NCBI RefSeq assembly: GCF_003334315.1 | Contig: NZ_QOWR01000084.1 | DNA from: Escherichia coli | GTDB taxonomy: Bacteria > Pseudomonadota > Gammaproteobacteria > Enterobacterales > Enterobacteriaceae | Length of the DNA stretch: 12,329 nucleotides | Direction: 5' to 3' (one strand) | Shown here: positions 5,603 to 5,663 of the stretch, in pieces | Numbering within the stretch: the stretch's first letter is position 1 | Layout: each line of letters opens with the position of its first letter | Notes under the pieces: generated by a model | Seen by the model: only the letters and a program-made list of their open reading frames with translations | What the model was told of the DNA's origin: nothing | The model's database searches: none | Translations under genes and position numbers: made by a program

Positions 5603-5630
5603 GACAAAAGCCCAGACTTTGCAGCCTGGA
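5603..5630 (-). terminator. Candidate rho-independent terminator downstream of gyrA (stem-loop plus CUUUUGUCGUAUU tail on the minus-strand transcript)
   Basis: Seen: the minus-strand RNA UCCAGGC-UGCAAA-GUCUGGG can form a 7-bp stem (two G-U pairs) immediately followed by a U-rich run; it lies 53-80 nt past the gyrA stop. Confidence 0.35.
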
Positions 5631-5645
5631 CTTTTCAATTCAAAC

Positions 5646-5663
5646 AAGGGAGATAGCTCCCTT
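5646..5663 (-). terminator. Candidate gyrA terminator hairpin (perfect 7-bp stem AAGGGAG/CTCCCTT, 4-nt loop)
   Basis: Seen: perfect palindrome 20 nt downstream of the gyrA stop codon. On the minus strand it is followed by GUUUGAAUUG (moderately U-rich); on the plus strand by UUUUGG, so it could act in both directions. Confidence 0.4.

Follow-up and report, generated by a model that had tools for sequence, protein, structure and literature searches.

A distal hairpin as the likely Rho-independent terminator of Escherichia coli gyrA, preceded by a weaker proximal hairpin

Introduction

The intrinsic (Rho-independent) terminators of Escherichia coli combine a GC-rich stem closed by a short stable loop with a U-tract placed directly 3' of the stem, and the expected release distance is about 7 nt past the stem. 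Such hairpins can also be found in series, as in the tandem terminator arrangement rrnB T1-T2. In addition, bidirectional intrinsic terminators located between convergent genes have been described by SEnd-seq studies.

In the present work, the end of gyrA was analysed in a 12,329-nucleotide stretch of E. coli DNA, which is called the window throughout. An earlier note on this DNA had pointed to two serial stem-loops downstream of gyrA, named here H1 (proximal) and H2 (distal). H2 shares with the canonical terminators of E. coli the GC-rich stem, the short stable loop and the U-tract directly 3' of the stem. It also has an RNA 3' end 7 nt past the stem and downstream of the stop codon, and the published data flag no significant Rho termination there, although apparent read-through rises when Rho is inhibited. 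Nothing essential differs from that model, the particular traits of H2 being a short U-tract (four U, then GUC), two G.U pairs in the stem and a distance of 80 nt from the stop codon. The likeness to rrnB T1-T2 lies in the two serial hairpins downstream of a well-expressed gene; in contrast, the mapped 3' end at gyrA falls at the second hairpin only, the first one being inefficient in K-12. With the bidirectional terminators the locus has in common the symmetry of A-tract, hairpin and U-tract, but gyrA and yfaA are co-directional, H2 is strongly strand-asymmetric and the opposite strand carries no 3' end in the Term-seq tables.

Results and discussion

Locus layout and identity to K-12

The following features were located, in the order in which gyrA is transcribed:

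Positions 5683 to 8310, minus strand: gyrA coding sequence (875 aa), from the list of open reading frames and the K-12 annotation of the identical sequence.
Positions 5685 to 5683, minus strand: stop codon of gyrA (TAA).
Positions 5671 to 5694, minus strand: hairpin H0, GAAGAAG..CUUCUUC, 7 bp, straddling the gyrA stop, from inverted repeats and the MFE of the CDS+UTR fold.
Positions 5646 to 5663, minus strand: hairpin H1, AAGGGAG-CUAU-CUCCCUU, a perfect 7-bp stem with a 4-nt loop, from the sequence and inverted repeats.
Positions 5645 and 5655: polymorphic positions of H1, in its tail and its loop, respectively.
Positions 5603 to 5635, minus strand: H2 with its flanks, the likely Rho-independent terminator of gyrA, from the fold, a Term-seq end, a CLASH fragment and conservation.
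Positions 5631 to 5610, minus strand: stem-loop of H2, GUCCAGGC(U)-GCAA-(A)GUCUGGGC, 8-9 bp with two G.U pairs and a GCAA loop.
Positions 5571 to 5596, minus strand: hairpin H3, GGGCACGG(U)..(G)CUGUGCCC, immediately after the mapped 3' end, with the yfaA ATG about 35 nt farther downstream.
Positions 3846 to 5534, minus strand, co-directional with gyrA: yfaA, first gene of the yfaA-yfaT-yfaS cluster, from the K-12 annotation.

The two stem-loops of the earlier note, the perfect 7-bp hairpin H1 among them, were confirmed in the minus-strand sequence at the positions given by that note and within 80 nt of the gyrA stop. The spacer between gyrA and yfaA measures 148 nt and contains three hairpins in the sense of gyrA (H1, H2 and H3). 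Position 5603 lies exactly 80 nt downstream of the gyrA stop codon, and the ATG of yfaA, at 5534, is found 69 nt downstream of the gyrA 3' end mapped by Adams et al., in whose table the distance is given as -69.

Positions 5500-5720 of the window were 100% identical to E. coli K-12 MG1655 (K-12 coordinate = window coordinate + 2331110), so the published Term-seq data for MG1655 apply to the window. The match extends over positions 77-12254 with 99.88% identity. The spacer was present exactly once in 5399 of 5426 complete E. coli genomes. A REP-like repeat element was ruled out, since the intergenic sequence occurs once per genome.

The outermost positions of the window, 1-76 and 12255-12329, did not match K-12 MG1655. 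Both sequences are multi-copy on the chromosomes and plasmids of E. coli (median, 3 places per genome), and they seem similar to the ends of IS186, within yfaS, and of an IS2-like element, within yfaL. With such ends, the window has the appearance of a contig delimited by insertion sequences.

RNA 3' ends downstream of gyrA

The RNA 3' ends of MG1655 have been mapped by Term-seq (Adams et al. 2021, eLife, PMC7815308). The dominant 3' end in this region is K-12 2336713, minus strand, which corresponds to C5603 of the window, 7 nt past the H2 stem; it is the C of GGGCUUUUGUC, inside the U-tail of H2 (PMC7815308). This end is listed in the tabs of two growth conditions, with average reads of 83,850 (LB, OD 0.4) and 114,542 (PMC7815308). 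Its intrinsic-terminator score is 5.61, values of at least 3.0 predicting intrinsic termination, and the entry for a significant Rho termination region is "No", with a Rho score of 2.17 that is nominally above 2 (PMC7815308). DirectRNA-seq coverage, counted in 800-nt windows, falls about 13-fold, from 368 reads upstream to 28 downstream, and in the presence of bicyclomycin (BCM) the corresponding values are 248 and 41 (PMC7815308). The apparent read-through past 5603 is therefore 7.6% without BCM and 16.5% with BCM, these ratios describing steady-state RNA and not termination efficiency as such. The 3'-end mapping that the earlier note had proposed as a check is thus available, and it places the end at H2 with an apparent read-through of about 8% (about 17% with BCM).

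In the source table, the end at 5603 is labelled "orphan", 69 nt upstream of yfaA, instead of "primary", because it is located more than 50 nt from the gyrA stop, the cut-off of that study (PMC7815308). The "orphan / upstream of yfaA" end is most likely simply the terminator of gyrA. Across all Term-seq tabs of Adams et al., it was the only end at a 23367xx coordinate, both strands included. The same 3' end is seen in an Hfq-CLASH data set, where one chimera contains the fragment 2336712-2336764 (minus strand), ending in ...GGGCUUUUGUC (Iosub et al. 2020, PMC7213987). A search of the TERMITe supplements gave no match, and a literature search on the gyrA/yfaA terminator, the gyrA 3' UTR and tandem terminators returned nothing relevant.

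Folding of H2

The predicted fold of H2 reaches -19.0 kcal/mol (z = -6.5), a value matched by 0 of 200 shuffled sequences. The core stem accounts for -13.5 kcal/mol, and -19.0 kcal/mol is obtained with its A/U extension: an upstream A-tract (AAAA, 5635-5632) can lengthen the stem to 13 bp. Downstream of the stem the sequence reads UUUU (5609-5606) and then GUC, so that UUUUGUC occupies 5609-5603. With a simple hairpin-plus-tail measure, the tail UUUUGUCGU (5609-5601) received a score of 3.7. In the context of the terminated transcript the pair probability of H2 was about 1.0. The whole gyrA-yfaA spacer RNA was also more stable than expected (-56.2 kcal/mol, z = -4.1, 0 of 200 shuffles as good). 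H2 is a stable GC-rich stem-loop with a U-rich tract directly 3' of the stem, and its energy is of the strength typical of gyrA terminators elsewhere.

A simple terminator scan returned H1 as its sole site, with 0.7 sites expected by chance, and overlooked H2, apparently as a result of its U-tract being taken up into the A/U extension of the stem. The pattern scan chose the wrong hairpin, which illustrates the limits of consensus scans.

H2 as the likely terminator of gyrA

H2 (window 5635-5603, minus strand) is likely to be the working Rho-independent terminator of the gyrA mRNA, because the 3' end maps to 5603, the intrinsic score is 5.6, no significant Rho region is assigned and coverage falls about 13-fold. 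The position of the 3' end, its score and the coverage drop are taken from the published work, while the fold energies and the comparative pattern were computed here. The earlier note had proposed that both hairpins together terminate gyrA. Termination in the region holds, with the Term-seq end at H2, but the share given to H1 is not supported, as no end was found there.

From the usual behaviour of intrinsic terminators we infer the order of polymerase events and the protection of the 3' end, as follows. RNA polymerase leaving gyrA would transcribe the 80-nt 3' UTR and would pass H1 with little or no release, because the H1 stem has only 5-7 bp and a G interrupts its U-tract (UUGUUUG). The GC-rich stem of H2 (8-9 bp, GCAA tetraloop) would form just ahead of UUUUGUC, and the RNA would be released at C5603, 7 nt beyond the stem. 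Roughly nine-tenths of the transcript signal would stop at H2, and the co-directional yfaA cluster would for this reason see a small leak only. The insulation of yfaA expected in the earlier note agrees with this picture: the cluster is largely shielded, coverage decreasing from 368 to 28 reads across 5603. The terminal hairpin H2, and perhaps also H1, presumably shields the 3' end of the mRNA from exonucleases.

The 3' end of this terminator is already present in a public Term-seq table, and the element is ordinary and already known. It matters little: the terminator is of the standard intrinsic kind, the gene has been studied well and no bacterium has been studied better.

H1 and the case for tandem termination

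H1 begins 19 nt after the gyrA stop and is followed by the tail GUUUGAAUUG (5645-5636). In the fold-energy check suggested by the earlier note, H2 stood out clearly and H1 was only marginal, with -9.6 to -9.7 kcal/mol and z = -2.7 when taken alone. The core stem of the K-12 allele has -6.0 kcal/mol, and its tail UUGUUUG, with a tail score of 3.0, is not an uninterrupted U-tract. The pair probability of H1 was 0.7-1.0, the sole competitor being a purine-rich stretch in the gyrA CDS. An attenuator based on alternative pairing of H1 and H2 found no support, the ensemble values being about 1.0 for H2 and 0.7-1.0 for H1. A small open reading frame over H1 (AUG 5670 to UGA 5635, 11 codons) was also discarded; a Shine-Dalgarno sequence is lacking, and neither Escherichia sp. 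MOD1 nor E. whittamii has conserved the frame.

H1 has a perfect 7-bp stem with five U in the next 8 nt and was the hairpin picked by the consensus scan, which would be compatible with true tandem terminators, where a substantial proportion of the polymerases would be released at H1 and likewise at H2, with a tighter insulation than either alone would provide. Such an arrangement is unlikely in view of the MG1655 data, since none of the Term-seq tabs has an end near K-12 2336740-2336750, where H1 would place it. Transcripts ended at H1 could, however, be too unstable for detection, and H1 may make a small contribution. The core energy of -6.0 kcal/mol compares poorly with the median of -18 kcal/mol for gyrA terminators of related genera, the K-12 tail is interrupted, and H1 alone barely beats shuffled sequence (5 of 200 shuffles were as good).

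The tandem reading gains from variation at the locus. The K-12-type allele of H1 (G5645, loop CUAU, tail UUGUUUG) was found in 3874 of 5394 complete E. coli genomes, about 72%, and an alternative allele (U5645, loop CCAU, tail UUUUUUG) in 1365 of them (about 25%), including O157:H7. The latter has an unbroken U6 tract and a predicted energy of -10.9 kcal/mol; as modelled, it is more like a working, if weak, terminator and might still terminate. Tandem termination is more plausible in strains with this U6 allele. The stems of H1 are also retained in E. whittamii, where the pair at the base of the hairpin is G-C; this pair is A-U in the U6 allele and an A.G mismatch in K-12. The change to G-C hints at some selection on the stem, although it is a single event. 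The stems of H2 were invariant across the E. coli alleles, Escherichia sp. MOD1 and E. whittamii. Changes in H2 were confined to the loop (GCAA, GUAA, GCGA and GCAG), with identical predicted energy.

One record titled Escherichia coli SCPM-O-B-8794 (locus L004) showed a different organization, with a GyrA tail …DDDVADDADE, a single GGGCCGA..UCGGCCC terminator and a convergent atoB-like neighbour. This locus resembles the Citrobacter or Salmonella type and not that of E. coli, and the record may be mislabelled.

Comparison with other Enterobacteriaceae and origin of H1

A set of 80 gyrA 3' ends was taken from different species of Enterobacteriaceae, and 77 non-Escherichia loci were analysed. 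These loci showed one strong proximal hairpin with a T-run, starting at a median of 18 nt after the stop and having a median energy of -18 kcal/mol. Its usual form is AAAGGGCCGG-loop-CCGGCCCUUUUU, and other stems include GGGAGGC, CCCCACC and GAGCCGG; given these varied stems, the structure of the gyrA terminator is kept while its sequence changes. The gene downstream of gyrA is either rcsC (co-directional) or atoB (convergent) in the non-Escherichia loci. The arrangement of a weak proximal and a strong distal hairpin was found only in Escherichia loci with yfaA downstream, namely those of E. coli, Escherichia sp. MOD1-EC7003 and E. whittamii. In Cedecea, an Erwinia MAG and Siccibacter, the real terminator was also preceded by a hairpin lacking a U-tail.

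The proximal gyrA terminator of the other Enterobacteriaceae occupies the same position as H1 (19 nt after the stop in the case of H1, against the median of 18) and shares with it the arms and the flanking A-run and U-run. In the Citrobacter amalonaticus-type terminator AAAAGGGAGGC-loop-GCCUCCCUUUUUU, the outer portions are identical to the H1 arms AAAAGGGAG and CUCCCUU and align with them in register. In contrast to that terminator, H1 does not have the apical GC pairs and is weaker than the median of -18 kcal/mol, and its K-12 form has a broken U-tract and no mapped 3' end. Because of the same position and about 16 nt of similarity, we infer that H1 is probably an eroded remnant of the ancestral Enterobacteriaceae gyrA terminator, with the caveat that GGG/CCC arms between runs of A and U are common to terminators in general. 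The sequence comparison suggests a terminator turnover, in which the proximal hairpin would have been eroded in Escherichia and the distal H2 would have taken over.

Processing, bidirectional termination and Hfq association

Term-seq peaks can also arise by exonuclease trimming back to a stable hairpin, and many of the ends in the data set used here are products of processing according to its authors (Adams et al. 2021, PMC7815308). The end at 5603 could then come from transcripts that read through into yfaA, are stopped downstream by Rho or by other means and are trimmed 3' to 5' back to H2. The acquisition of 3' ends by Rho-dependent transcripts is a subject of Dar and Sorek (2018, PMC6061677). 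With a Rho score of 2.17, Rho acting downstream could be part of the picture, and BCM raises the apparent read-through from 7.6% to 16.5%. Nevertheless, processing as the origin of the end is very unlikely: the Rho termination region is not flagged as significant, the intrinsic score reaches 5.61, BCM leaves more than 80% of the coverage drop in place, and the end is located 7 nt past the stem in a U-rich tract. Direct release at H2 is preferred over trimming.

The earlier note had added that the first hairpin might be bidirectional, as it is followed by a T-run on the plus strand. The run is present, since the plus strand after H1 reads CUCCCUUUUGG, but two of its four U belong to the stem. 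The plus-strand sequence following H2 is GGACUUUUCAA. Both hairpins have A runs 5' and U runs 3', a symmetry that could let H1 or H2 stop plus-strand transcription from the yfaA side. H1 is equally stable on both strands (-9.6 kcal/mol on the minus and -10.3 kcal/mol on the plus strand, followed there by UUUUGG), and the homologous terminator of Citrobacter is placed between convergent gyrA and atoB. In the case of H2, however, -19.0 kcal/mol on the minus strand is reduced to -8.0 kcal/mol (z = -1.6) on the plus strand, because two G.U pairs become C.A mismatches. Furthermore, the Term-seq tables have no plus-strand 3' end at 23367xx, yfaA is co-directional, so that no gene's transcript comes from that side, and no promoter-like site was found on either strand of 5300-5900. 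Comparable two-strand stability with U-tracts was not found in H2, H1 being symmetric but weak, nor was convergent transcription with ends on both strands, and a bidirectional function, which the earlier note had put forward, is highly improbable. A terminator acting in the direction of gyrA is the reading retained. H3 was also asymmetric, with -16.8 kcal/mol on the minus strand and -10.3 kcal/mol on the plus strand.

It is barely credible that the gyrA 3' UTR (H1 and H2) is kept or released as an Hfq-associated regulatory RNA or sponge and not just as a terminator: in one Hfq-CLASH chimera ChiX is linked to K-12 2336712-2336764 (minus strand), a fragment ending at the terminator (PMC7213987), but this chimera is single and its predicted duplex weak (-15.2 kcal/mol), gyrA appears only as CDS in a RIL-seq-derived table, no Rfam family matches (best 18-19 bits against gathering values of 51-55), the linker between H1 and H2 has no seed conserved beyond Escherichia, and neither reproducible Hfq association nor a stable processed fragment, as expected of a 3'UTR-derived Hfq sRNA, was found. 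The ChiX chimera fragment (window 5602-5654) is annotated as "yfaA 5'UTR" in the source table (PMC7213987). The Rfam candidates Termite-leu (18.8 bits against a gathering value of 51) and STnc50 (18.2 against 55) were rejected, both merely fitting two generic hairpins.

Neighbouring hairpins and expression of yfaA

The arms of H0 are formed by GAA-repeat codons of the acidic C-terminal tail of GyrA and by the first bases of the 3' UTR; H0 is probably an incidental result of this GAA-repeat tail. H3 is a stable fold (-16.8 kcal/mol, z = -4.4, 1 of 200 shuffles as good), but it is followed by A6 and has no U-tract, and it is not a terminator. It varies among E. coli strains and has diverged in E. 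whittamii.

No sigma-70-like promoter was found in 5535-5602, or across 5300-5900 on either strand, and a good Shine-Dalgarno sequence (AAGGA) is present ahead of the yfaA ATG. The yfaA cluster may rely on gyrA read-through or on an unrecognised promoter. With no sigma-70-like promoter in the 68 nt that separate the gyrA 3' end from the start codon of yfaA, yfaA-yfaT-yfaS (alpha-2-macroglobulin) could owe most of its expression to transcription leaking through H2, and the polymorphism of H1 could adjust this leak from lineage to lineage, a proposal that we consider rather unlikely. If it were true, the level of the yfa cluster would be tied to the supercoiling-sensitive gyrA promoter.

In E. 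coli LF3-1, yfaA was lost through an IS1-linked deletion, together with the remaining sequence as far as atoS. H1 and H2 were kept: the sequence of window 5594-5690 is retained, and the match breaks 16 nt past the mapped 3' end. At this locus (L086, 750-1597), IS1A is situated about 60 bp beyond H2, followed by a truncated atoS pseudogene and then by rcsC.
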